Part shown: piece after piece, positions 1-23,875 of the stretch | Layout: the number at the start of each line of letters is the position of its first letter | How positions within the stretch are numbered: position 1 is the first letter of the stretch | The notes under the pieces: model-generated | What the model saw: the letters and a program-made list of their open reading frames with translations, nothing else | Databases searched by the model: none | Told to the model about the DNA's origin: nothing | NCBI GenBank assembly: GCA_965233585.1 | Contig: CBDDTI010000547.1 | Location: forward strand, 1-23,875 | Reading direction: 5' to 3' | Origin: a bacterium | Lineage (GTDB): Bacteria > SAR324 > NAC60-12 | DNA: 23,875 bases | Translations under genes and position numbers: made by a program

Positions 1-47
1 ATCCATCTATCCGTCCATCCATTCATCCATCTGTCTGTCTACCTACC
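1..47. repeat. (CCAT/CTAT/CTGT)n mixed tetranucleotide microsatellite, truncated by the window edge
   Basis: atccatctatccgtccatccattcatccatctgtctgtctacctacc read directly. Confidence 0.8.
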
Positions 48-56
48 AACAACGAG

Positions 57-3000
57 GAGCGGCTAAAGGCTGAAGTGGCCGAATTGCCTGATGTGGTGAT
101 GGCTGCCGCCCGGCCCAGGCATATTATCAACCATCGCAACAGATGATAATTTTGCTGGTTTCACGGTGATTTTTTTTTGGAGCAATGCTCATCATTGGAC
201 ACATGGGAAGTGCCTTCTTTGGATAAATGCTGACAGGTTGTGGTCGTTCATCATCATATTGGATTGCCTTTCGGACAGTGAGCATTTTCACCTGATTTTG
301 CTTGTCCGCCGATCCATGTCGCCAGTCGCAACGTGCCATCGGTGCAGTAGGGGTGCCCAATGACAGTCCATGGAGGTGGCTCCGACCACAGCAGGTGTTC
401 GCTTCGCCAAGGCAGTTGTTGAGCATGGACAACTCGCCCATCAAACGCTTGTTGCAGAGGAGATCCAGCCCAGCTTATCCAGTATTTATTGTACGGGTTT
501 ATGGGAAGGAGAGTGGCATAAACAATGTATTGTAACTAAACATTTGGCTGCTGGTTTCTTATCTTCATCACTTTCTCTCTTTTACTTGTCCACTTGGGAT
601 GATTGATTGCACAATATGGAGATCCTGTGGCCATTTCAGTACCGAACCCTGCTGACGTCTCATTGCAGGAATGGCGGAAGCATGACACAGGCTGCGTTGC
701 AGGAAGAGGCTGAGGAGGCTGAGGAGGCACTGGGGCTTTCAAACTTGCTCGTGGGCTTGCAGCTATTGGAGGATCGGTTGGGTACCATTCCGCCCTTGGG
801 CCAGTGCGCAGGTGACGATACGCCCAGGCTCACAAAATCGTTCCCAAAAGGACAGCTCTGCCTTTCATGTGATGTGACGCGTAGGTTTGATCACCGGTTC
901 CTCCCCTATGTAAATTGCAGGTGGTGCATAGATCGTTTTGGCACTTCTGTCATTCATGGCCAGCCATAGTCATAAAAGTTGTGATGCACACGTAATCCTT
1001 GAAGGCATCAAATGTCCTCGCAGGTGGCCACTGTCCATTCTTGCAAGGCCATATCCTATCAACCACCCCCAGCAAAAGTCCCATCAATCTTCACCCTTCC
1101 CTGAGTCTCTGAAGTGTACAAGGAGCTTCCAGCTGAAGAGATTGACGAGGAGTTGGAAGGCGGGACTTTCCCAAACCTTCCGCGGTCTCGAGTCCCTTTG
1201 CCAAGGAGGTAGAAGCTTTGAATGTCATCAAGAAGAAATGGCACAAAAAAAGCGCCTATTCAGGCTGCCCCACCCCACATTTGATGGCCTGCTACTTTAC
1301 AAATAACCAGCGAATTGTTGCATTCAGTTTCGCGTACCGAAGGCCTTACATTGTGAGCGCGTCCCAGCGCCAGGAGACGAGGGGAACGTGGGGAACGTGG
1401 AGTTGACCCAGCGCAGTGCCTTCGAGGAGATCGCTGGCTATCGTTGCCACATCAAAAAGCTGGCTCTTTTTGGAGATCAAAGCATATCAAGCTGGATAGC
1501 AAAAACATGCAAAAACCAATGATTGGCTGCTTCGAAGTTGTGGACGCCTTGCACATATCATCGACAGTCAGCAATGAACCAGATGCATTGAGAGATTCCT
1601 TGCAGCAGACACTTGAAGCGAGCCGATCAAATGGTTGAAGTTATAGATGACATCGCAAAGGCCCTGTAGCAATCCACCTTGTCAGAGGATTCATTGATGT
1701 ACACTGACAGCACCATCGGTGGGCAAGGTGATGCCACCCTAGGTCGGGGGCCCCCGACTGACTGCCTTGTGCTGCGATTTTGCCAAGGTTCGATTTTGTC
1801 CAAGGGCTGTAACAGCTGCAAGATTGGTCAGTTTGCCATGTTTGGGTGGAATCCACCCTTTGACTTTGTGAAAATGCTTCCTTGTTTTAGGTCACACGCT
1901 CATGGGCTTTGCCGATCAGGAGCGACAAACACGTTCAAGCAGCTTTGCATCCAGGGTGATTCATATCATCACAACACCTGACAATATATGTTTGGCCTTG
2001 CGTTTTTATCTCTGTGGTTTGAACCTATGGGATAGTTTGTTCTATGTTTTCCCACACCTTGTGATCAAATCCTCCAGAGAGGATACGCTTGATGCCCCAG
2101 AAGCAGAAGAGGAGCAGGAAGAGGCCATGACGATGAAGATAGAAACTGTGCTGAAATTTGTCGTGCACTCTTTTGGCCGCCCTTCGTGACTCTGAGACTT
2201 GGGACGGTATCAGCAAAAGCTTCCAAAGCGCATAGATAAAAACAGGTGATTCTATGCATCAATGTTCCCCAAGTCTTCTCTAAGGACGGTTTGCTTTGCG
2301 ACACCTGGGCCGGCCACACGTTGAAGCTAGAGCTTCGGGAGGAGCTGCAACCTGTTTTGGATGCCGATGACATCCCAGAAGAGCTCACCGCAGTGCCTGA
2401 AGCCAAGGTTTGGAATAGTTCGCACACTTTTCGGATGTTTCATTGCAGTCTTGTTGCTTCTGATGCTGGATTTTTGTTCGCGCATCAGAAGGTGCTATGT
2501 ATTGAAATCACATTCCGTTTCTGGTCTGGAAATGCCCATGCACCAATTCAACCGGCATAGGGTCACCGCTTTCTGCATTCCCAGAACTTACCGCAAGGAT
2601 GAGATTTGCCGCTCCCTATGTGCATCTCAGAACCGCCAACTTGACGCAGGTGGATGCAATAACTGTGCCGGCTTCTGCTGCGCTTCCGGATCCAGCTGCA
2701 CAAGTGGAACGGCTGTCGGCGCAAATCTCGCGCTTGTGCCCCGGTTCATATACAGTATGTGGATGCTAGGCCGGTTTCACTTTCATGTGAAACAACCGCG
2801 CTGCTGTGGCAGGGAGCGGCTCCAAAGTAGACCATTCACTGTAATTGAATGAAGCCTTGCAGCACTTGTTGTGCATACCTGGCTTTCGCACGGGCCCTTT
2901 CCGAGAGTATGCTGCTTTCAGGTACATGGATGTTGTGAGGGACTTAGATGCCTCAGCCCGCAAAGTTTGGGACGAGCTCTACGTGCTTTTCCAGGCGCTT

Positions 3001-4045
3001 CATGGAAAGGTCTTCAAAATACCAGTTTGTGAAACTGTGGTACATGTCAGGTATATCAAGATGTAAAGATGTTCATATGTTATTTCTGGCTCCACAGCAG
3101 ATCAACATTATTTTCATCACTACTACAACATTAGTTCGCTCCGTGGCACAAACCAATCATCCACGGGCAAAGGAGAAGATGAGAATCGACATGACAGACG
3201 AGGCACGAGTGCTGGCAGTCCTGGTCCTGAAAGCATTGCGTATCTCCATATGTTTCCATCTTGACACAATGCCCAGAAAATATTTATGCCCCAACCCTGT
3301 TGTTCAAAGTTCAAGCTCAAGGTCTTTGATTGCACATTGCGTGCCATGCTTTGATTGGGGGATCTAGAGATTGTTGTGCTACTGATGTGACATCACAGTA
3401 GTGGCGCAATTTCGAAAATATTGAAAGGAAAAATGCATCCTTCACAAATTCTTAAATTTGATTTCCACGACTGGATGGTCACAGCAAAAATGTCAACAAG
3501 TTTGTATGAAGTCAAAAATATCATGGGGCGGCGGCACCAGGACCAGAGCGAGATTGAGGCCTTCATTTTCGAGCATCTACCCACCGAGAGCTGCTTGTCC
3601 GAAAGAGATTGAATCGCGGGAGTGGTCTAGGGTAAGGCAAGACTTGCGCGGAATCTGATGCAGCAGCATTGCCGAAGAACAGTTGCAACATTTGAAAAGC
3701 TTGGAGTGTTGGCGGTCATTCGGCTACGCTGATGTCTTTTTATGGTCTTGCCGTTCACAACCAAGTAGATTTGTTCAGCAAGTTCAGGACTTGTTTGCCC
3801 ACCTGAGGCACTGAACTTATCTGGAAAGTTTACAAGGCCAAATGGGAAACTATGGGCTAGGGCCAAGTTCTTTGCCCACAAAAGCTAGCTGTTGATCAAT
3901 ATAGTTCCCCCTTTTATGCAAGATCTTCTTTCCTGCTGCATGATACCATTCCAGAGACACCTGGCTTGGGAGGTGCTTTACTTGGAGCAAGAACGAGATA
4001 GACTTCACAAATTAATGGAAAGCCCAGAGAAAACATATGTTTTGT
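57..4045 (+). CDS. Uncharacterised multi-exon gene (or gene remnant) with many short exons; exact structure unresolved
   Basis: Non-repetitive sequence of balanced composition with protein-like segments bounded by AG|G acceptors and AG|GC or AG|GT donors: 57-118 ERLKAEVAELPDVVMAAARP(R), 2082-2123 DTLDAPEAEEEQEE, ~2342-2407 ELQPVLDADDIPEELTAVPEAK, ~2940-2994 DLDASARKVWDELYVLFQ, from 3541 DQSEIEAFIFEHLPTE. No family recognised; the end coordinate is approximate and more than one gene is possible. Confidence 0.5.
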
Positions 4046-4374: not shown

Positions 4375-6095
4375 TACACAGAGCGCGCGCGCAGTTTCCC
4401 GAGCCCAAATCTCCCAAAAATCTGCCACAATTTTAGGACTTTCACGAAGACATCTTCAGTCTATGCGAATACAAACTCAGTCTGTACTTCCTGAGCCCCC
4501 TGCGCGGAAGTCGAAAATTCACTACTTTTTTGGGGATCTTTCGTTTTGTATTTCCCAAAAAAAAAGTGATCACTGGGCAAATGCAGCACGGTCGGTCGCG
4601 GACGGTCGGGGGTTTGATTCCCCTTAGGTCCGTCCCGACCCCCTGAGCTATTGCCTTCGCTTGCCTAGCTTCTGCGCTATTGTTTCTGTGCTCTTTCTAA
4701 CACGCACCTCTGCGAAACTGCCCGCTTGCTGCACCCACGTTCTACCGCACACTGTGCCTGCTTCCTTAGCCTGCGCGCGCTGTTTTGGGGAACTTCTTTG
4801 CTTTCGGTAGCAACTTTGGAGGGCAGCTTTGGGGAGCAACTTTGCAGCTTTGCAGCAGCATTGACGAACAGTTGCTTTGAAGAACGACAGCTTTTGGCAG
4901 TAGCTTTAGAAAGCAACTTTGGAAAGCAGCTTTCGGAAACAACTTTTGGAGGCAGCTTTAGCAGCTTGGGGGAGCAGCTGTTCGGAGCAGCTTTCGATAA
5001 CAACTTTGGGGAGCGGCTTTGGGGAACAGGTTTGAAGCATAACCGCTTTGGGGAGCAGCTTTCGGGGGCAGCTTTACAAACAACTTCAGGGAGCAGCTTT
5101 CACTAGCAACTTTCGGGAGCAGCTTGCGGGAGCCGCTTTGCAGAATAGCTTTGGGACCCGTTTTGAGGTATAGGTTTGAGAAGAATCGTAGCTTTGGGGC
5201 AATAGCTTTGGACAGCACCTTTGGGGCAATAGCTTTGGACAGCACTTTTGGGGAGCAGCTTTTGGTAGCAACTTTGGGGCGCTATCAGAGCCGCTTTGCA
5301 AAATAGGTTTCAGCTTTGCTTTGGGGCACAGCTTTGGGGAGCAGCGCCGGGTAACAGCTTTGAGGAACAACTTTGAAGAGCAGCTTTGGGGACCAACTGT
5401 GGGGAGCAACTTTGCGGCTTTGCAGGAGCATTGATGAATAGTTGCTTTAAAGAACGACAGCTTTGGGGAGTAGCTTTTTAGAAAACAACTTTGGGAAGCA
5501 GCTTTTCGGAAACAACTTTTGGAAGTAATTTTCGCTTTCGGTTATCGATTAGCAACCTGGCTTACTCTGAGCTTGGCTCTCCGTTTCCGGACTGCAGAGA
5601 GGGATTAACTGACTGCCTGTCTAGCTGAGTGTTGCTCCCGGGTATCGAGCCTGGGACCGGTTGGAAGAGGGACGCCGCCATAACCACTGAGCTAATTCGA
5701 CAACAACTTTGGGGGTCGGCTTTGAGGAACAGCTTTGTGGAGCAGGTTGGGGGAGCAGCTTTTAGGAGCAGCCTTGCATAGCAGCTTTCAAGAATCGCAG
5801 CTGTGGGGATTGACTTTAGAACATCACTTTGAGGAGCAGCTTTCGGTAGCAACTTTGGGTTTGTGGAGCCATTTTGGCAAATTTTCCGGAATAACTTTGA
5901 GGAACAAGTACATTGAAGAACAGCAGTTTTCGGGGGAAGCTTTTTGGAGCAAGCAGCGCGGAACTACTTTTGGAGTAACTTTGGGGACTAGCTTTGGGGG
6001 TTTGGAGGGTATTTTGGCGTAGTTTTGGGAACCAGTTTTGCGAATAATTTTTTGGGAATAACTGTGGGGCGCAGCTATGTGCGGAGGAGCTTTTA
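4375..6095 (+). repeat. Interspersed repeat with a GC-rich unique head followed by a degenerate GGGGAGCAGCTTT minisatellite array
   Basis: From ~4785 to ~6090, tandem 12-14 nt variants of ggggagcagcttt/agcaacttt. A higher-order duplication is visible (4831-4950 vs 5402-5523). Boundaries approximate. Confidence 0.75.
5533..5701 (-). mobile_element. tRNA-derived SINE-like insertion (169 bp) inside the GGAGCAGCTTT array
   Basis: The minus strand starts GTCGAAT-TAGCTCAGTGG (A-box, 5684-5694) and has CCAGG-CTCGATA-CCCGG (T-arm/B-box-like, 5638-5654) at tRNA spacing (72-nt head, 5630-5701), then a ~97-nt unrelated tail. It interrupts the host unit between TTTT (5529-5532) and AACAAC (5702); the equivalent uninterrupted unit is at ~4948-4972. 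Confidence 0.7.
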
Positions 6096-6176
6096 TTGCT
6101 TATTTATTTCTAAATTATACATTCTATTTTGTGATGGATTATATTTTTATATTATAATTTATGATTAATTTTTTTT

Positions 6177-7674
6177 TTCGTAAAAATATCTGAATATAAG
6201 CTTTTTCTAATAATAAAAAATTTATATTTTATTTTTTTATCCTTATATTTTCTTATGTTTATATTTTCTTATTTTTATATTTGTATATTTTTATATTTCC
6301 TTATTTTTACATTTTTTTATTTTTACATCTATATATTTTTATATTTTCTTACTTTTATATTTATTTATTTTATATTTTATAATGTTTATAATTTTATATT
6401 TTAATATTTTTTTTTTTGTATTTTTTCTTTTTTGCTTTTTGATTTTCTCCGCTTGCCTTCTTGCCTCTCCTTTTTTCTATTTTTTTTCTGAAGGCGGGGC
6501 AAGGATAGTGCTAACGAGACGGTACGAAATATAATGCTTTCGAATGAAATGAGGCTTGATTACCAAAAATTTTTACCTGGATGTCTAAATTATTTTATAT
6601 AATTTTTTTAATGAAATGAGGTTTGATTACCAAAAATTGAGGTAATATTACGATTTCAAGTTATTCCGTATAACCCTTTTGTATGAAATGAGGTTCGATC
6701 GTTAAAATTTAAAATTCCGCGTAATTATTTCGTACCAAATGAGGTTCGATTACTAAAAATTGAAGTGAAATCGTAATTTCTTTGTCTAATCATGATTATT
6801 TCGTATAAAATGAGGTTTAAATTGCGATTTACTGTGTGTAAAAGTATTTGTGTATAAATGTGTTTGTGTGTAAAAGTATTTGTGTGTAAAAGCATTTGTA
6901 TGTAAAAGCGTCTGTCTTTAAAATTGATAGTTTGTAAAAATATTTGTGTGTAAAAGTTTTTGTGTGCAAAAGTGTCTGTGTGTTAAAGTGTTTGTGTGTA
7001 AAAGTGTATGTGTGTAAAAGCGTCTGTGTGTAAAAGTGTTTGTATGTAAAAATGTCTGTGTATAAAAGTGTTTGTGTGTTAAATAAAGCTTTTGTGTGCA
7101 AAAGTGTCTGTATGTCAAAGTGATTGTATGAAAAAGTGTTTGTATATAAAACCTTCTGTGTATAAAAGTGTTTATGTGTAAATGTGTAAAAGCCGTCTGT
7201 GTGTAAAAGGGTCTGGGTGTAAAAGTTTCTGTGTGTAAAAGCGTCTGTGTGTAAAAATGTCTGTCTGTAAAAGCGGCTGTGTGTAAAAGTGTTTGTCTGT
7301 AAAAGCGGTTGTGTGTAAAAGTTTTGTGTATAAAAGCGTCTGTGTAAAAAGTAACAGTGTGTAAAAGCGTCTATGTGTAAAATTGTCTGGATGTAAAAGA
7401 GCCTATATGTAAAAGTGTCTGTGTATAAAAGTATCTATGTGTAAAAAAAGCTTTTGTGTGTAAAAGCTTCTTTTTGTCAGGGGTTGTTTGTGTAAAAATT
7501 TGCAATATTTCTGTGTGTAAAAGTATTTGTAATGCAAACTATTATTTTGTATTTATATAATATTATCTTGATTCGTTTTGTGTGCCTTTAATATATCTTG
7601 AATATATTAGTTTGCAAAAAAATGGTAGTTCTTTACTAACAAGAGAAGACCCTGTTCCTTTACGCTCTTGAGTC
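6177..7674 (-). mobile_element. ACAC-satellite family element, minus copy, heavily AT-decayed at its left end
   Basis: Reverse-complement homology to 11915-13055 in the same module order: terminus (6177-6225 vs 13008-13055), decayed GATGAGAA tract (~6230-6420), unique linker (6451-6527 vs 12587-12660), ~60-bp AAATGAGGTTCGATC units, TGTGTGTAAAAG satellite (6833-7525), and 7521-7558 vs 11921-11956. Confidence 0.8.
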
Positions 7675-7689
7675 ATCCGTCGTTTAATC

Positions 7690-8354
7690 TATTTTTCTTC
7701 TGAAGGCGGGGATAGGGGGCAAAACGAAATGTAACTCTTTCGTACAAAATGAGGTTCAAACGCCAAAACCTGAGGTAAGATTACGATTTCAATTTCTACC
7801 ACGCAATTCTTTCGTTTGAAATGAAGTTCGATCGCCAAAATCTCAGTTAAAAATACGATGTCCAAGTCGTTCCGCGCATTTTTTCGTACTGAATGAGGTT
7901 CGATCGCCAAAAGCTAAGGTAAAAGTGCTATTTCAAGTTGTTCCGTACAACTCTTTCGCACGAAATCAGGTTCGATCGTCAAAAATGGAGGTAAAATTAC
8001 GATTTCAAGTTGCTTCGAATAACCCTTTCGCACCAAATGAGGTTCGGTCACCAAAAATTGAGCTAAAATTCCTACCAAATCGCGACCCCTTTCGCATGAG
8101 ATGAGGTTAAATCGCCCAAAACTGAAAAAAATTTCGATTTTCTGTGCGAAAGCATCTCTGTGCAAACGCGTCTGCATGCAAAAGCGTTTGTGTTTAAAAC
8201 TGTTATTGTGTAAAAGCGTCTGTGTGCAAAAGCGTTTGTGTTTAAAAGAGCGTTTGTGTTTAAAAGTGTGGGCGTGCAAAAGCGTCTGTGTGTGCAAGGT
8301 TTTGTGTGCAATTCTGTGTGTAAAAATGTCTGCGTGTAAAGACCTCTGTGTGTA
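7690..8354 (-). mobile_element. Second, partial minus copy of the ACAC-satellite family
   Basis: Restarts at the linker tatttttcttctgaaggcgggg (same as ~6478-6499), followed by ~60-bp gaaatgaggttcgatcgccaaaa units and TGTGTGTAAAAG satellite. Confidence 0.75.
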
Positions 8355-8700
8355 ACAGAGACACTTTTACACAAAGAAGCTTCTACACAAAGATGTTTTT
8401 ACACACAGACACTTGTACACTTACACGCTTTCACACACAAATGCCTTTACACAAACAATCTTACACACAGACACTTTTACAGATATAAACTTTCACACAC
8501 AGACGCTTTTAGACACTGACACATTTACAGACAGAGGTTTTTACAAACAGGCGCTTTTACACACAGATCCTTTTACACACAAAACCTTTTACTAACACTT
8601 TTAAACACAACCGTTTTTACACACAAATGCTTTTTTACACAGTAACAGTTTTCAACAAAGACATTTTTGCTGACAGACAAACAAACTTCTTTTAGACATT
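8355..8700 (+). repeat. ACACAGACRCTTTTAC satellite fragment in the opposite orientation to the adjacent copy
   Basis: The motif switches abruptly from tgtgtgtaaaag to cttttacacaca at ~8354/8355. Confidence 0.8.
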
Positions 8701-8704
8701 CACG

Positions 8705-9990
8705 TGTAGGGTTTTGTTTTAGTTCTGTATCCTCTCCTTCCTTTCCATCCGTTCACCCACTGTCTCAGATGCTGTTTGACTCACCCAACTCATTCACTGG
8801 CTCCTTTGCTTTACGTGGCAGCCTTGGGACACCGCAGACTCCCAAGGGGTAGCTGCGCGCCGTGGCGTCCCTCGGGCTCCGCATTTTTTGAATGGCAGCC
8901 TTTTCATACCCCGGGCTCTGCCATTTTTTGGCAGTGTGGGCGAATGTTTCGTGCAAAGGGATCGGATGTTCACCCTTGTTTCACTGGGCCTTCGCCGCTT
9001 TTGCGCAGCGGGCATAGAACAATGCCTTCGTTCTGGCGTTCGTCGGGGTCCAGGTCTTTTGCAAAAAAGCAAAAGGTCAAATGCATGCACTGGCGTCCCT
9101 CGGGGTTCCAAGGAATGAAATGTGTAAAATGCAGTGCCAAGGCGTCGGATGTTTGTCCTGTTTCTTTTGGATCTGTCTCCTTTCCGAGGCTCTGCCGACA
9201 TTTTCAAGGGCTCGGACCCACGCCCTGGTGTCTCTCGCGCTCTGCCGCTTTTGCGAGGCTTTGCGAGGCAAGCTTGGGGAAATGTGCATGATTCTGGCTT
9301 TTTCAAAGAAACATTCTCTCTTGTTCATTCACTTTCATTTGTTTTGACTGAGTGATAGATTCTTTGAAATCAATCACACCCCAACTTAGTCAGACCTTCC
9401 ATCCCCAAAGCACTTTGTTAAAATTTTTTTTCCCCGACCCACACATTCACATTAGGCATGCGCACACACTCACGACACATGAAACAAACGCGTCGACACA
9501 CAAAAACTTTACACAGAACAGAAATTTTTGCATGCCGACAGCTTTAAAAACAGACTGGACTATTTTGGACATAGAAACCAAGAAACAACGGAAAATTCAA
9601 TCGCTTTGACAAACAAGTGTCTTGATATTTCCTCTCAGAAGCGGTTGCTACAAAAAATTTCACCCAAACCTTTTAGGCATGAAAGAATTTAAATTTCCGA
9701 GGGTTAGATTTACGCCTTAGAATCGCTCGAGCTCCATCTTTTTTGCGTTCTGGGTTTGGGAAATATGCATTGCTAGGGGTTTTGTTTCGAGGAAAGCCTG
9801 GAACAATGAATAATATATTTTTTCACTCACTCATTCACTTTCACTTTTTGCCCCACTGATTGATTTCCTGACAACACTCATGCAACCGTTAATCACTCAT
9901 TCATTTACTTCTTTGAGACAGACTGACTCACCCACACACCACTGACCTGTGCATGCACATAAACACACACAGATATTCTGCACCCATCAC
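8705..9990. repeat. Degenerate long-period repeat region (roughly 0.5 kb units) with CACTCATTCACT motifs
   Basis: Recurrent blocks: tagggttttgttt (~8707, variant ~9775), ttggg(g)aaatRtgcat (~9274, ~9756), tcattcact (~8790, ~9325, ~9831) and an exact tggcgtccctcggg at 8863 and 9091. Boundaries uncertain. Confidence 0.5.
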
Positions 9991-10806
9991 ACACCCTCCT
10001 AATTGTATTTCTTTCTTTTTTGTATTAACACATTTCCAAAATATATGGTTACACACTCATGTAATTCTAAATTATTTTTTTTTGGATTTTTATTTTTATT
10101 TAAATATATTTATCTATTTTTTTCTATATTAAATAAACAATTTTTTCCAATTTATTTATTTTTACAAATATTGATATATATTTTGATTTTTTATTTTTTT
10201 CTAATTATTTTTTTAATTTTAATTTTTTTAATTTTTTATGGAAGATGGATTGCTTGAAAGCGCAAGAGAGAATAATTTTTCATGGTAATAAGAAGACACC
10301 ATAGTCAAAACAAAGCATTGGTGCTACATTGACCATGTCATAGGTGTAACCGATCAACATCAGGTACTCAATTTTGGCCAGTACACCTTTGACCTAGCAG
10401 AGAAAGTGATGAATTAAATAATGCATTTAATTGGTAGACTACATACAATAGTAGGAGTGAGAAGAAAATTGCTATAGGGCGTTGGCGCGGGTTAATGAAT
10501 AAAAACTAAATAAACTATCAGTTTCAAGCATAGGATGATGATAAAGCATATCAAGCCATGGCTCCCGTTCGTTGCTGTTTTCCCAAACTTCAAACCAACA
10601 TTCTGACCTACCGAACATGACTTCCCAATGGAAATGTTCATTCCACCAGTAAATGACATTGTCGTTGATGATTGGACTGCGCAGCCGCTCTACAACCGCA
10701 GAACACCCAGCGTGTAGTTTCGATTTTTTGTGCCCGTCTGACTGCGGTGGAGGATGCTGCAGTCAATCGCCTAGCAAAGTCCATTACTCAATTGTCACTG
10801 TGTCAG

Positions 10807-11914: not shown

Positions 11915-13055
11915 TCTAACATAAATATAAAATAATTATTTGCATCGCAAATATTTCCATCCACAGAAGCCTTTAGAAACAAAAGCTTTAGAAATGTTTG
12001 TACACAAACGCTTTCCAGACAGGCACTTTTACACCAGACATTTTTACACAGGCGCTTTTACACAGACGCTTTTATACACAGACACTTTTACACACAGAAG
12101 CTTTCACACACAAACGCTTTTACGCACAAAAGCTTTTTTATACACAGGAACTTTTACACACAAAAAAAATTTACACACAAACACTTTTAGACACAAACGG
12201 TTTTGCAAACAAACGCTTTTACAAACAAATACTTTTACACACAAACACTTTACACACAGTTGCTTCTACACAGAAACACTTTAAAATACAGAAATTTTGC
12301 ACACAAACGCTTTTACCGACAGACACACAAACGCTTTTACCGACAGATGCTTCTACACACAGACACTTTTATACACAGAAGTTTTTATACACAGAGACTT
12401 TTACACGCAGACCCTTTCACACACAGAAGCTTTTATACATTCACACACAGACGCTTTTACACCAAAACGCTTTTACACACAAACACTTTTGCACACAAAA
12501 GCTTTTACAAACAGACACTTTTAAGTTGAAATCGCAATTTTACCTTAATTTTTGGCGTGATCGAGTCTCATTTCGTGCGAAAAGGTCGTGCCGTTTCGTT
12601 GGCACTGCCCCTGCCCCCGCCTTGAAGAGAAAAATAGAAAAGAAGGCAAGAGGGCAAGAGGAGAAGATGTCAGGATGAGAAGATGAGCAGATGAGAAGAT
12701 GTGAAGATGAGAAGGTGAGAAGATGTGAAGATGTGAAGATGTAAAGATGAGAAAATACGAAGAGAAGAAGATGTGAGGATGAGAAGATGAGAGGATGTGA
12801 AGATGAGAGGATGTGAAGATGAGAAGATATGAAGAGGAAAAGATGTGAGGATGAGAAGATGAGAAGATGTCAAGATAGAAGATGGTGAAGAAGATGTGAA
12901 GATAAGAAGATAAGGAGATGAGAAGATGAGATGAAGATGTGAAATTGTGAGGATGTGAAGATGGGAAAATAAGAAAATGAAAAGATATAAAGAGGAAAAA
13001 ATATTTTACAGACCACCACTATTGGAAGAATCCTGCGCTCAAGTGCTCTTGGGAA
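11915..13055 (+). mobile_element. ACAC-satellite family element, plus copy
   Basis: acacagacgcttttac satellite (~11960-12522), unique linker (~12525-12660), (GATGAGAA/GATGTGAA)n tract (~12665-13000), terminus ccactattggaagaatcctgcgctcaagtgctcttgggaa. Left boundary uncertain. Confidence 0.8.
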
Positions 13056-14178
13056 TAATCTATATATATATTTTTCAAAAAATATATTTTCTCATATATT
13101 GCAAATATATTTATAAATAATAAATCTATTTTTCCCTCAAATTATTTTCCTAATTTCTTGTAATTATTATTATATTTTTCGAAAAAAAAATAAAATTATA
13201 TACTATTTTTTTCCTATATATATATATTTATTTTATATTTCCAAAAATCCATCCCAAGAAATTTCCATATAAATATTTAAATATTTATAATATTTTTTTA
13301 AATAAAATATATCGATTTTCCCAAAATTTCAATTTTCCTTATTTTAATATATATATATTTGTAAAATTCTAATTTTCCATAAATTATTTAAATTCAATAA
13401 TATATGTATTTTCCTTATTTATTATTTTTTTCATTCCTTAAATAAATAGAATCAAATACTATATTTTCCTTCCTATTTTTTTTAAAAATATCATTATTTT
13501 TATTTATTTATTATTTATATAATTATATAAAATAATATATTTTTCTTATTTTCCCTTATTTATTACTATTTATATTTTTCAAATAATATATAAATTCGGT
13601 TAGATTCGGTTTATTTTCCCAAAATTTTAGATTTCATCATTACCTATTATTTTTTATTATTTTCATTATTTTTTATTATCTTTCCCATATATATATCTAA
13701 ATCAAATAAGATATCCATTTATTAATATTTTAATTTTTCCTTATTTTAATATTTTTTTTAAAATTTTTTTTCCCTATTTATCCATATATATATATTTATT
13801 TTTAAATTATATTTTTTAAATAATATTATAAATCATTATAATTTATTAAATATCATTATCTTTCATTATTTTCGTATAACATTATTTCCCATCATTATAT
13901 ATATAATATTAAATAATATATCCATTTTCGCAAGATTTTATTTCCCCTCCCTTCCCTTTTTATTTTCCTAAATAAAATAATAAAGCCGTTTTCCAAATGT
14001 CTAATTTCAATTTATTTATTTTTTATAATTAAAAATTATATTTTATATTTTTCTATAAATAATAAATTTATAAAAAAACATATTTTTAAAAATATCCATT
14101 TTAATATTAAATAATATATTTATCTTCCCGAAATTTTCTTAATTATTTTTATTATTTAATTATATTTTTTTCAAATAA
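13056..14178. repeat. Extremely AT-rich, G-poor low-complexity tract, probably a decayed satellite
   Basis: Almost entirely A/T with recurring residual motifs ttttccc, ttccat, atcattat and very few G on the + strand. The ORF track has no ORF lying within it. Confidence 0.65.
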
Positions 14179-16807
14179 TCGAAGGAAATTTAGAAGTCAA
14201 ACTTCCGACAATATGGACAGATGAAAAGCCGAGCAGGGAAGAGGCAGAGGGAAGAGAAAGATTAAAAGAAAGAAGAGTAGAAGAGAAAGAATAAGAAGAA
14301 AAAAGATATAAATGTATGAAAAGGTAGGAAAATCGCGAAAAACTGTGTTTTTCCAATAATTTGGGACTCCGGAGGGTCGAAAAGTAGGCTTGCTAAAGCG
14401 GCGGAGCTAGCTGGCCAAATGAATGTGAAAAATTACACGCCGTTATGGCGCGAAGCACATTTTGAAGTCAAAATATATAAAATACACCAAGTTCGGACCA
14501 CTTTTAGAAGTTCAAATATCGAAAAAGTACACGCCATTATAACGCGAAGTATATTTCCAAATCAAAATATATAAAATACCTCATATTCGCGCCATTTTTT
14601 AAGGGAGGGCTATTTTTTTTGGGAATTTTTTCCCGTTTTCTGGTGGAAGGAAGGAAAGAAGGAAGGAAAGAAGGAAGGAAGGAAGAAAGAAAAAAAGAAA
14701 GCAAGAAAAAAAGAAAGAAAAAATCTTCTCTTGAAAAATGAAAGGAAAGCTTCCTTCTCTTGACCCCCCCACCCGCATTTATTTTTTAGCCGGCTCCCCT
14801 TGCTACCTACTATTCTTTTTTTCATAAGCATCATCGTTGTTTATTTGGTTTCATTTAATCTTGATTAATATCCATCGCGACTTATACCTATGTACTTCTT
14901 TCTTGGTACGCATTACACCCCCCCACCAGCTTTTATTTTTTAATCGGTTCCCCTTACTACCTATTATTCTTTTTATTTTTCATAAGCATCATCGGTTATT
15001 TAGGTTCATTTTATCTTTATTAATATCCATCGAGATTTGTACCTATGTACTTCTTTCTTGGTATGCATTGCGAGGGGAAGCGCTGCGCCGCGGGAGGCGC
15101 TATGCCCTCCCCCCTACACCCCCCCACCCGCTTTTATTTCTTAATTAACTTCCCTTGCTACCTACTCTCTTTTATTTTTTTCATAGGTATCGTTTCTTTG
15201 GATTCATCTTTTTTTTCTTAATTTTTATTTATTCCATCGAGACTTGAGCCTATGTGCTTCTTTCTTAGTGCGCAGGGCCTCCCCCCTGTATCCCCCACCC
15301 GCTTTTATTTTTTAATCGACTTCCCTTACTACCTACTCTATTTCTTTTTCTTTCGCAAACATCGTTTATTTAAATTTATTTTTTTTATAATTAATATTTT
15401 CATTCTTGCTGCTACTACTACTACTACTATTACTACTACTACTAGTACTACTACTACTAGTACTACTACTATTACTACTACTATTACTACTACTACTCTA
15501 GTACTACTAGTACTAGTACTACTGCTGCTGCTGCTACTACTACTACTAATACTACTAGTACTACTACTACTACTAATACTACTATTACTACTTCTACTAC
15601 TTCTACATTTTTTATTTTCTTTTTAATCCTTATTTATTTTTTTTTAATTCCTTATTTTTTGTTTTTTTTAAATCCTTATTTATTTTTTTTAATCCTCTAA
15701 CCTCCCCAACAACAACCACAACCAACAACCACCAACAACAACCACCAACAACAACAAACAACAACCAACAACAACCAACAACCAACAACAACAACCACCA
15801 ACCACAACAGCAACCACAACCAACCAACACCAACCAACCAAGCAACCAAGCAACCAACCAACCATCCAACCACAGCAACAACAACAACACCATGCAAATC
15901 AAAGAACTTAGCTGCAAAACGCTGCAAATACCAATCAAAACCATCAAATCCCAAAAAACGAGAAAAAATTCCCAAAAAAAAATATAAAAAATTCCCAAAA
16001 AAAATTACAGCCCTTTTTTAAGGTTCGAATGTCGAAAAAATACATATTATTATAATATAAAATATATTTCATATGTTCGTATCACTTTTAGAGGTTTAGA
16101 TGTTTAAAAGTATACGCCATTATAACGCGAAGTACATTTCGACATCAAAATATATAAAAAACTCCACATGTTCGCAACACTTTTAGAAATTCAAATATCG
16201 AAAAAGTTATGCCGTTATAATGTAAAAAATATTTCCAAATAAAACTATTCAAAACAATAAAGATTTAAACCAATTTTAGAGGTTCAAATATCATTTCGTT
16301 TCAATATACTATATTAGAATTTATTATAATATAATATATTCCAGTACACTACATTACACTCCACTACATTACTACATTACACTAAATAACACTACAACAC
16401 AAATAAACAAGTAAACAACTAAACAAATAAACAAATAAAAGAGAAAAATAAATAAACAAATAGGTAAATAGACAAATAAATAATTAAATAAAAAAAAATA
16501 AAGGCCAGCTAGGTAAATAAAATAAATAAATAGCTAAACAAATAAAAGAAAAAAAAGAAAGAAAAAGAAATAAATAGATAAATAAATAGATCGATAGATA
16601 GATAAATCAATAAATAGATAAATATATAGAAAATAGATAGGTAGGTAAGTAAATAGTCAGAGAAAAAAAGAAAAAGAGTAAGAAAGATCAAGTACCTTTC
16701 AATCCATCAGTGGCTTCGTTCTACCATCCCTAATTCACAACAACCAACCTCTCCTATAAGTTTCCTATTTTTGAAACTTCCGTCACCGCCTTATGCGGTA
16801 CTACTGG
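14179..16807 (+). mobile_element. Non-autonomous Helitron-like element, copy 1 (AT-decayed, interrupted by a MITE)
   Basis: A|TCGAAGGAAATTTAGAAGTCAAACTTCCGAC start and ACCGC-cttat-GCGGT-ACTACTGG|T end. Colinear with 19050-20310 and 21908-23769 once 14603-16021 is removed. Confidence 0.75.
14603..16017. mobile_element. TIR MITE with TTAA target-site duplication and purine-start termini (Kolobok-like)
   Basis: TTAA (14599-14602)-GGGAGGGCT-ATTTTTTTTGGGAATTTTT ... AAAAATTCCCAAAAAAAATTAC-AGCCCTTTT-TTAA (16018-16021). Removing it rejoins the host unit ccatttt-ttaa-ggttcgaatgtcgaaaaa. Interior: (GGAA)n, four ccccccacccgcttttatttt-led units (~14764, 14918, 15119, ~15292), (ACT)n and (AAC/ACC)n. Confidence 0.75.
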
Positions 16808-16959
16808 TATTAATTTTAATATTTTTAATCCTATTCCTTACCATATTTCTTAAATCCATCCACTATGTAGAATCTACGATAAAATAATTAGATTCTTATT
16901 TAATTTAATTACAGGAAAAAATAAATTTGAAATATATATAAATAATTTATTTTACTTTT

Positions 16960-23875
<6,916 letters not shown>

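Follow-up and report, generated by a model that had tools for sequence, protein, structure and literature searches.

Dense, locus-selective G:C to A:T hypermutation of a Helitron-like repeat copy, RIP-like in outcome, in a 24-kb window

The DNA analyzed here, in the following called the window, is the whole 23,875-nucleotide stretch of contig CBDDTI010000547.1 (assembly GCA_965233585.1), in which a background of ~45-52% GC (guanine plus cytosine) is interrupted by AT-rich blocks of 13-30% GC. It contains copies A, B, C and E of a repeat, family 1, and one of these, copy A, is densely loaded with G:C to A:T transitions, i.e., G>A and C>T on the forward strand (together GC>AT). An original prediction, made by eye from a 56-nucleotide example, had proposed that this copy underwent hypermutation resembling the repeat-induced point mutation (RIP) of ascomycete fungi. 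The direction of the changes, their spectrum, the mixture of strands, their spatial profile and their privacy to A were established by comparison with related copies. Family 1 starts with a single-copy 5' arm of ~250 bp, which is followed by four or five 94-bp units in tandem, by (CACTA)n and (GATA/GACA)n arrays and by a 3' arm of ~170 bp. The copies in the window and the parts of A are:

14179-16812, plus strand: copy A, hypermutated, a Helitron-like and putatively non-autonomous element, delimited by self-BLAST and by nhmmer against copies B and C
14179-14426, plus strand: 5' arm of A, from the three-way alignment
14427-14604, plus strand: 94-bp units A1 and A2 of A, with the 56-nucleotide example of the original prediction in A2
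16016-16292, plus strand: tail of A2 and units A3-A5, 24% GC
16293-16639, plus strand: degenerate (CACTA)n and (GATA/GACA)n arrays of A, now T-richer and A-richer, judged by composition relative to B and C
16640-16812, plus strand: 3' arm of A, ending in CTGG behind a subterminal hairpin
19051-20310, plus strand: copy B, GC-normal reference
20867-21215, plus strand: copy E, an older partial copy with balanced spectrum that serves as age control, from nhmmer and a four-way alignment
21909-23774, plus strand: copy C, GC-normal reference and the longest copy, with an additional middle part at 22543-23120, from nhmmer

Helitrons start with 5' TC, end with CTRR (R: purine) behind a hairpin and insert between A and T without target duplication. 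The termini of family 1 look like these: the 5' terminus reads TC in copies A and B and CC in copy C, the 3' terminus is CTGG in all three copies with a 5-bp GC-rich hairpin 8 nt upstream of the end, and the insertion site has an A before the element in three of three cases and a T after it in two of three, without target duplication. A Pfam scan of the open reading frames (ORFs) of the window revealed no Rep/helicase ORF in family 1, and the element would be non-autonomous if it is a Helitron. An 8-bp hairpin (GGAAGTTT...AAACTTCC) is present at the 5' end of family 1, and its second arm recurs near the 3' end.

The substitutions in the arms were assigned to lineages by majority rule over a three-way alignment of A, B and C, in which the arms of B and C show 90.6% identity, while the eight complete 94-bp units of B and C supplied the reference consensus for the units, which biases the unit counts for B and C low. 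In total, 137 substitutions were assigned to A in arms and units, 109 of which are G>A or C>T, three are A/T>G/C transitions and 25 are transversions. Within the arms, 34 substitutions fall in the A lineage (23 G>A, five C>T, one A>G and five transversions), compared with 19 in the B lineage (five GC>AT transitions, three AT>GC and 11 transversions) and six in the C lineage (two GC>AT transitions, four AT>GC and no transversion), and the difference between A and B plus C is significant (Fisher p=4e-5). The tandem units of A differ at 103 of 414 sites from the reference (81 GC>AT transitions, two AT>GC and 20 transversions), whereas the units of B and C differ at 14 of 342 and 20 of 344 sites, respectively, and neither shows a GC>AT bias. 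Pooled over arms and units, 109 of 398 G/C sites of A are mutated vs. three of 440 A/T sites (p=6e-35). If each unit column is counted only once, GC>AT changes are found in 36 of 41 G/C columns and the reverse change in two of 45 A/T columns, and 14 G/C columns are altered in a single unit only, so homogenization of the array cannot explain the signal. The simple arrays changed in the same direction, as G makes up 30-32% of the (GATA)n-type array in B and C compared with 10% in copy A, in agreement with the predicted change of GATA/GACA to AATA/AACA, and C falls from 35.5 to 21.8% in the (CACTA)n part; these figures describe composition only and the underlying events are not independent.

The original prediction had named simple age as an observation that would speak against it, and simple age is refuted as the cause of these differences, because the changes of A other than GC>AT are no more numerous than those of its sister copies (six in the arms of A, 14 in B and four in C) and because the older copy E is balanced. 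In the four-way alignment E has 29 private changes, seven GC>AT, nine AT>GC and 13 transversions, compared with 12, zero and two for A. The polarity was also examined at the protein level, with the caveat that stop-laden hypermutated copies are seldom called as genes or proteins. An 84-residue ORF of A departs from the family majority at 18 positions, and among the best 120 of 420 relatives no protein has more than three A-type residues: 60 share none, 48 share one, ten share two and two share three. As no relative in this set carries more than three of the 18, A is the derived copy with private changes and not a member of an AT-rich subfamily, as far as called proteins reflect the family.

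Relatives of family 1 that bear an ORF are abundant in public assemblies, with at least 8000 of near-length (all scored candidates at E<=0.001) and 2647 longer ones on contigs of up to ~2 Mb, and a few come from JGI and metaclust environmental sets. The public "proteins" translate the 94-bp unit in all three frames and often begin in the 5' arm; these more than 10,000 entries are probably gene-prediction artefacts on a repeat and not real genes, i.e., likely annotation noise. A purine/pyrimidine-degenerate pattern of the unit matched four units in the window and no place in a collection of bacterial and archaeal genomes. None of the 37 ORFs of the window scored above the Pfam cut-off (one sub-threshold match to pentapeptide repeats was obtained), no Rfam family and no tRNA was detected in the window, these Pfam, Rfam and tRNA scans gave no fungal marker on the window, and a dinoflagellate spliced-leader motif had no match in the window with up to three mismatches allowed. 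The best score in a protein atlas was 0.79 and carries no information on the origin. The repeat peptides may resemble Symbiodiniaceae gene models.

All sequence contexts of C are affected in A, and C before A is affected most. The mutated fractions are 41 of 96 for CpA, 25 of 103 for CpT, 21 of 90 for CpG and 15 of 83 for CpC, which gives an odds ratio of 2.6 for CpA against the remaining contexts (61 of 276, p=1.8e-4) and p=0.005 for CpA against CpG. Within CpA the preceding base matters, with ACA mutated in 16 of 27 cases, GCA in 11 of 22, TCA in two of 14 and CCA in nine of 28, i.e., 27 of 49 for a purine and 11 of 42 for a pyrimidine before CA (RCA vs. YCA, p=0.006). Over all contexts the mutated fraction by 5' neighbor of C is 34 of 99 for A, 27 of 87 for G, 21 of 81 for C and 23 of 117 for T, T being least favored. 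Both strands are mutated; per site G>A (81 of 241) exceeds C>T (28 of 157) about two-fold (p=5e-4), and the CpA bias lies mainly on one strand (G of the plus strand 29 of 48 vs. C of the plus strand 12 of 49). The 81 G>A and 28 C>T changes are intermixed, as 59 of 101 neighboring pairs are of the same type compared with a permuted mean of 0.60, and kataegis-like strand-coordinated patches were rejected by this absence of clustering.

For the 56-nucleotide example at 14521-14576 the letters are exactly as quoted in the original prediction, and its ten transitions in unit A2 were recovered against the B/C unit consensus: four G>A at TpG, three C>T at CpA and one G>A each at CpG, GpG and ApG, with three of the four CpGs intact. 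The statement that all differences in this example are G>A or C>T stands for these ten, but the B/C consensus adds one G>C transversion at a position where the by-eye consensus had C. The trend predicted for 16022-16807 was found, with 35-62% of G/C sites mutated in A3-A5 and CpGs hit in A3 and A5. The order of contexts in Neurospora is CpA > CpT >= CpG > CpC. The CpA/TpG bias of A is real and modest, about two-fold, and has the same order as in Neurospora yet is far flatter; what was proposed as a CpA/TpG signature thus survives in A below the strength of RIP and mainly on one strand, and it is absent in the second locus described below.

With respect to CpG, the analysis upheld the claim that passive decay of 5-methylcytosine at CpG does not account for A. 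CpG is not the leading context in A and is no more spared than CpT and CpC, and decay of CpGs in the references is slight, with one CpG transition in the B and C arms (in B) and one of 48 in each unit set vs. 21 of 90 in A. Passive decay of methylated CpG is therefore excluded as the main cause, as CpG does not lead in A and the CpGs of B and C did not decay comparably. The observed/expected ratio of CpG is 1.4-2.5 in A at 14179-14604 and 16016-16292 and 0.76 at 16293-16812; it is 1.2-2.7 in the flanks of A and in the AT-rich 6000-6830 block, 0.48 at 9950-10500 and 0.6-0.8 in GC-normal DNA.

Thresholds for RIP are 0.89 for TpA/ApT and 1.03 for (CpA+TpG)/(ApC+GpT). The RIP indices suggested in the original prediction as a check are beyond both thresholds at 16016-16292 (0.92 and 0.88, respectively), while at 14179-14604 only one of the two passes (0.89 and 1.13); B and C have 0.58-0.59 and 1.20-1.21. 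Separately, GC-normal stretches of the window (e.g., 1-4000 and 17000-18340) show observed/expected ratios of 0.33-0.64 for TpA, 1.25-1.38 for CpA+TpG and 0.6-0.8 for CpG. Low TpA, raised CpA+TpG and mild CpG depletion are the background signature of this genome.

The mutations are unevenly distributed along A. In the 5' arm one of 36, eight of 33 and five of 44 G/C sites are mutated in the successive thirds, in the units the fraction is 24% in A1, 37% in A2, 33% in the A2 tail, 62% in A3, 35% in A4 and 50% in A5, and in the 3' arm it is ten of 41 in the first and four of 40 in the second half. The termini together have five of 76 G/C sites mutated vs. 104 of 317 in the remainder of A (p=7e-7), and the nearly unmutated 5' end adjoins a block of 13% GC. 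The following features interrupt or flank A:

14605-16015, plus strand: nested insertion of 1.4 kb with terminal inverted repeats in unit A2, with TTTTTTAAGG at both sides
13056-14178: AT-rich block left of A, 13% GC over 13040-14178, with sharp edges at ~13056 and 14178
16813-16960: AT-rich block right of A, ~150 bp with 16% GC, possibly the other half of the left block

The inverted repeat of the nested insertion is formed by 14613-14643 and 15951-15981 (31 nt, 94% complementary). The two copies of TTTTTTAAGG, a 10-bp flanking duplication, depart from the unit consensus by the same three derived states, and the mutation is therefore at least partly older than the insertion; the insertion as trigger of the mutation was dropped, because these common states speak for the reverse order. 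A GC>AT excess is not seen in the insertion itself, whose 155-bp repeats have 14 GC>AT, 11 AT>GC and 17 transversions under a majority-rule polarization that is weak. Besides four of these 155-bp repeats it contains arrays of (GAAA)n, (CTA)n and (CAA)n, and at its 3' end the inverted-repeat motif occurs in duplicate. The spatial profile and the order of events suggest an episode that was aimed at the element and not a steady regional drift.

For the AT-rich DNA at 13040-14178, 16813-16960 and 9950-10500 no progenitor was found in the window, as transition-tolerant alignment performed no better than with shuffled queries. BLAST between the islands was not above shuffled controls, and the flanks of A have no homology to those of B and C. 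In our reading the left block existed before A as an entity of its own, and A inserted into it. The few remaining G's at 13056-14178 often lie in CpG (observed/expected 2.7), mostly as TTCG, and the GC skew is strongly negative. A sharply bounded segment of ~200 bp at 10040-10240 with roughly 10% GC has T-runs with TTTCC like those at 13056-14178, and its homology is not above shuffled controls.

A second locus in the window is hypermutated in part. It belongs to repeat family 2, which is built of an 8-mer array, 72-bp units and a 16-mer array and has three copies, D1 (6221-7530), D2 (7697-8355) and D3 (11990-12996, minus strand). The relevant features are:

6221-6830, plus strand: hypermutated 5' part of D1, in which (CTCATCTT)n became (TTTATTTT)n and the 72-bp units are mutated
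6833-7446, plus strand: 16-mer array of D1, not clearly hypermutated according to per-position base frequencies
7697-8355, plus strand: D2, GC-normal reference
11990-12996, minus strand: D3, GC-normal reference with unmutated (AAGATGAG)n array

The C content of the 8-mer array is 5.3% in D1 vs. 36.3% in D3 (read as reverse complement), i.e., 85% of the C's were lost. In the 72-bp units of D1, 26 of 74 G/C sites are mutated vs. 12 of 116 in D2 and D3 together (p=6e-5), and these units also have seven AT>GC transitions and 16 transversions. The strand bias is opposite to that of A (C>T 20 of 41 vs. G>A six of 33), and, as an exception to the pattern of A, CpG (12 of 28) is affected no less than CpA (three of 12), the difference between them not being significant (p=0.48). 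The CpA signature is absent in D1 and therefore not general, and hypermutation itself recurs in the window. D2 and D3 are without GC>AT excess, as are B, C and E, and the sister copies lie within 2-8 kb. Of the proposed repeat- or domain-targeted cytosine mutation, the local and directional change was thus borne out, while a trigger by repeats was not shown and B, C, E, D2 and D3 are unaffected. The 16-mer array of D1 was dropped as a hypermutated segment, since its per-position composition is like that of three other arrays. A gradient from the AT-rich island into the D3 array was likewise dropped, as only the last ~40 bp lose G, followed by 50 bp of GC-normal DNA and a sharp edge. A large imperfect palindrome at 8144-8642 is formed by two 16-mer arrays of family 2, the first in plus and the second in minus orientation, which abut head to head at ~8355.

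As explanation for these observations it is probable, on balance, that A and the 5' part of D1 were hit in place by dense, locus-selective cytosine deamination on both strands in one or few episodes. Such a process would act on duplex DNA and convert between a quarter and two thirds of G:C to A:T at selected loci; it would favor C before A, mainly in purine-C-A, yet take all contexts including CpG. It would select individual loci, not every repeat copy, and in A its effect would fade toward both element ends. Candidate triggers are the silencing state, non-CG methylation or partial homology. The outcome would be RIP-like, i.e., an irreversible AT-enrichment that leaves a repeat copy loaded with stop codons. 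We infer that the cause was enzyme-driven deamination, by a DNA methyltransferase-like or AID/APOBEC-like enzyme brought to silenced loci, and not passive decay, and the deamination may serve as genome defense. Several points weigh against this explanation. It is drawn from two loci in one 24-kb window only, and a single mechanism for both is an assumption, because A and D1 differ in context preference and dominant strand. An element-centered process is at odds with D1, whose mutated zone extends only as far as the 16-mer array and ends within the element. As the very AT-rich flanks of A have no assignable progenitor, the surroundings may also have been AT-rich beforehand or have undergone a regional effect. 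Finally, tandem arrays can spread single mutations, so that the array compositions are weak evidence.

Among the alternatives, passive decay without dedicated mutator, through dense all-context methylation or through an AT-biased regional regime, e.g., at a chromatin-domain boundary, is unlikely, though less so than the others. It would fit with the flanks of A being even AT-richer than A (13-16% GC), with the several AT-rich islands in the window, with the GC dips at Hi-C domain boundaries described for Symbiodinium microadriaticum (PMC8110479) and with the non-CG methylation of transposable elements in Symbiodinium (PMC5890265). However, it leaves unexplained that the other substitution classes are not raised in A, that the element termini remained almost unmutated beside a flank of 13% GC, that the nested insertion, which is younger and lies midway in the island, has no GC>AT excess, that the island edges are sharp without grading and that the CpGs of B and C decay far below the rate of A. 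Slightly less likely still is that an APOBEC-like deaminase edited a single-stranded, Helitron-like transposition intermediate, which then integrated into AT-rich DNA. Editing before integration would account for the mutation of A alone beside clean sister copies, for the spared termini and the sharp boundary with the flank and for the ~2-fold strand asymmetry, and the element ends fit a rolling-circle transposon. APOBEC3 enzymes prefer TC/CC, whereas in A neither T at position -1, the least favored base, nor C at this position is preferred; moreover, one transferred strand predicts only one type of transition and not 81 G>A interleaved with 28 C>T, and D1 is mutated in part only.

Ordinary fungal RIP, i.e., an ascomycete contig with a premeiotic, RID-dependent process, is very improbable. 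The C:G>T:A changes on both strands in the Neurospora order of contexts, the alternation of AT-rich blocks with sequence of ~48% GC and the indices of 16016-16292 agree with it, but sister copies of near-identical sequence lie unmutated at a distance of a few kb, efficient RIP would be incompatible with a family of at least 8000 plus 2647 relatives that bear an ORF, a few relatives also come from the JGI and metaclust environmental sets, and the CpA preference is weak. Least credible of all are assembly or base-calling errors, e.g., at modified bases, for which the assembled sequence offers no support. The locus also differs from its relatives by indels, unit number, array length and the 1.4-kb nested insertion, the changes track sequence context and spatial profile, and flanks of 13% GC are not explicable as base-calling noise. 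A bisulfite-like artefact was rejected by reasoning, as conversion is incomplete and G>A and C>T are found side by side in individual short stretches.

Deamination in place at selected loci can be compared with known systems of hypermutation. Like RIP in Neurospora crassa and other ascomycetes, the changes in A are C:G>T:A, affect both strands and prefer CpA while CpC is hit least; as in N. crassa, their density drops at the element edges (in A, not in D1) and the relics are AT-rich and stop-laden. Neurospora-type RIP mutates every copy within a nucleus that is long and similar enough. The present case departs from this defining rule: sister copies at 82-91% identity within kilobases are untouched, as are thousands of relatives. 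In further contrast to N. crassa, the CpA preference is ~2-fold and not dominant, and the host is apparently non-fungal. Neurospora-type RIP depends on RID (DNMT4-type) or DIM-2. RID-type DNMT4 outside fungi is given for diatoms only in the one survey of MMETSP transcriptomes that bears on it (PMC9998398).

Vertebrate AID/APOBEC hypermutation of retroelements and viruses resembles the present case in that single copies are densely C-deaminated while relatives stay clean, and a mild purine preference before the target C in CpA (RCA vs. YCA, as given above) is also shared; in contrast to the vertebrate enzymes, both strands are mutated and interleaved here and no TC or CC preference is seen. The target of the RIP-like process of the basidiomycete Microbotryum is TCG. 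Basidiomycete RIP-like hypermutation, e.g., in Microbotryum, is likewise a repeat-associated C>T change whose context differs from the Neurospora rule (PMC3318451), yet Microbotryum is still a fungus. In the chlorarachniophyte Bigelowiella natans a localized A>G hypermutation at TpA of integrated viral DNA was reported (preprint 10.64898/2026.01.13.699255), which according to this preprint is also locus-selective, dinucleotide-biased, directed against foreign or selfish DNA, proposed as a defense and found in a non-fungal protist. It differs in its opposite direction (A/T>G/C at TpA), in its viral targets and in being measured in mutation-accumulation lines. In the literature searched, RIP-like C>T hypermutation was found reported only in fungi and none was found for dinoflagellates or other algae, the nearest case being the A>G process of B. 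natans.

A more specific reading, put forward only tentatively and with considerable doubt, is that the window derives from a non-fungal marine protist, probably a dinoflagellate, in which a locus-selective cytosine-deaminating defense acting on both strands turns individual Helitron-like and satellite-bearing repeat copies into discrete AT-rich blocks. As they accumulate, such blocks would give rise to the local GC minima of these genomes, e.g., those at chromatin-domain boundaries. The published observations that follow bear on the window only if it is part of a dinoflagellate genome. One study of Symbiodinium reports that silent transposable elements are the target of non-CG methylation and speculates on APOBEC-like editing (PMC5890265). 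Dinoflagellates are also said to possess APOBEC-like genes (Discussion of preprint 10.64898/2026.01.13.699255). For S. microadriaticum GC dips at Hi-C domain boundaries were described, averaging ~5-10% over 10 kb, with no mutational origin proposed for them, and the likeness to the window extends to local GC minima in repeat-rich, gene-poor DNA and to a genome of ~51% GC vs. 45-52% in the GC-normal parts of the window (PMC8110479). Under this condition the published methylation, APOBEC-like genes and GC dips would make the process plausible without showing it.

In fungi, dense C>T hypermutation of repeats acts as a genome defense known as RIP, and in vertebrates it serves to edit viruses and retroelements. 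If a protist with a huge genome full of repeats clearly had such a process, this would broaden the range of these systems and offer a mutational origin for AT-rich islands in such genomes. It would also direct attention to testable enzymes, i.e., APOBEC-like deaminases or methyltransferases that are carried by or aimed at transposable elements.

Further repeats lie in the window outside the two hypermutated loci. A degenerate 13-bp array, (CAGCTTTGGGGAG)n, with ~40 copies and open frames on both strands occupies 4801-5788. At 17080-17205 a 62-bp tandem duplication is found, which must be very recent because its two copies show 100% identity. Immediately upstream of copy B, a 700-bp (ATAC)n array extends over 18346-19046.

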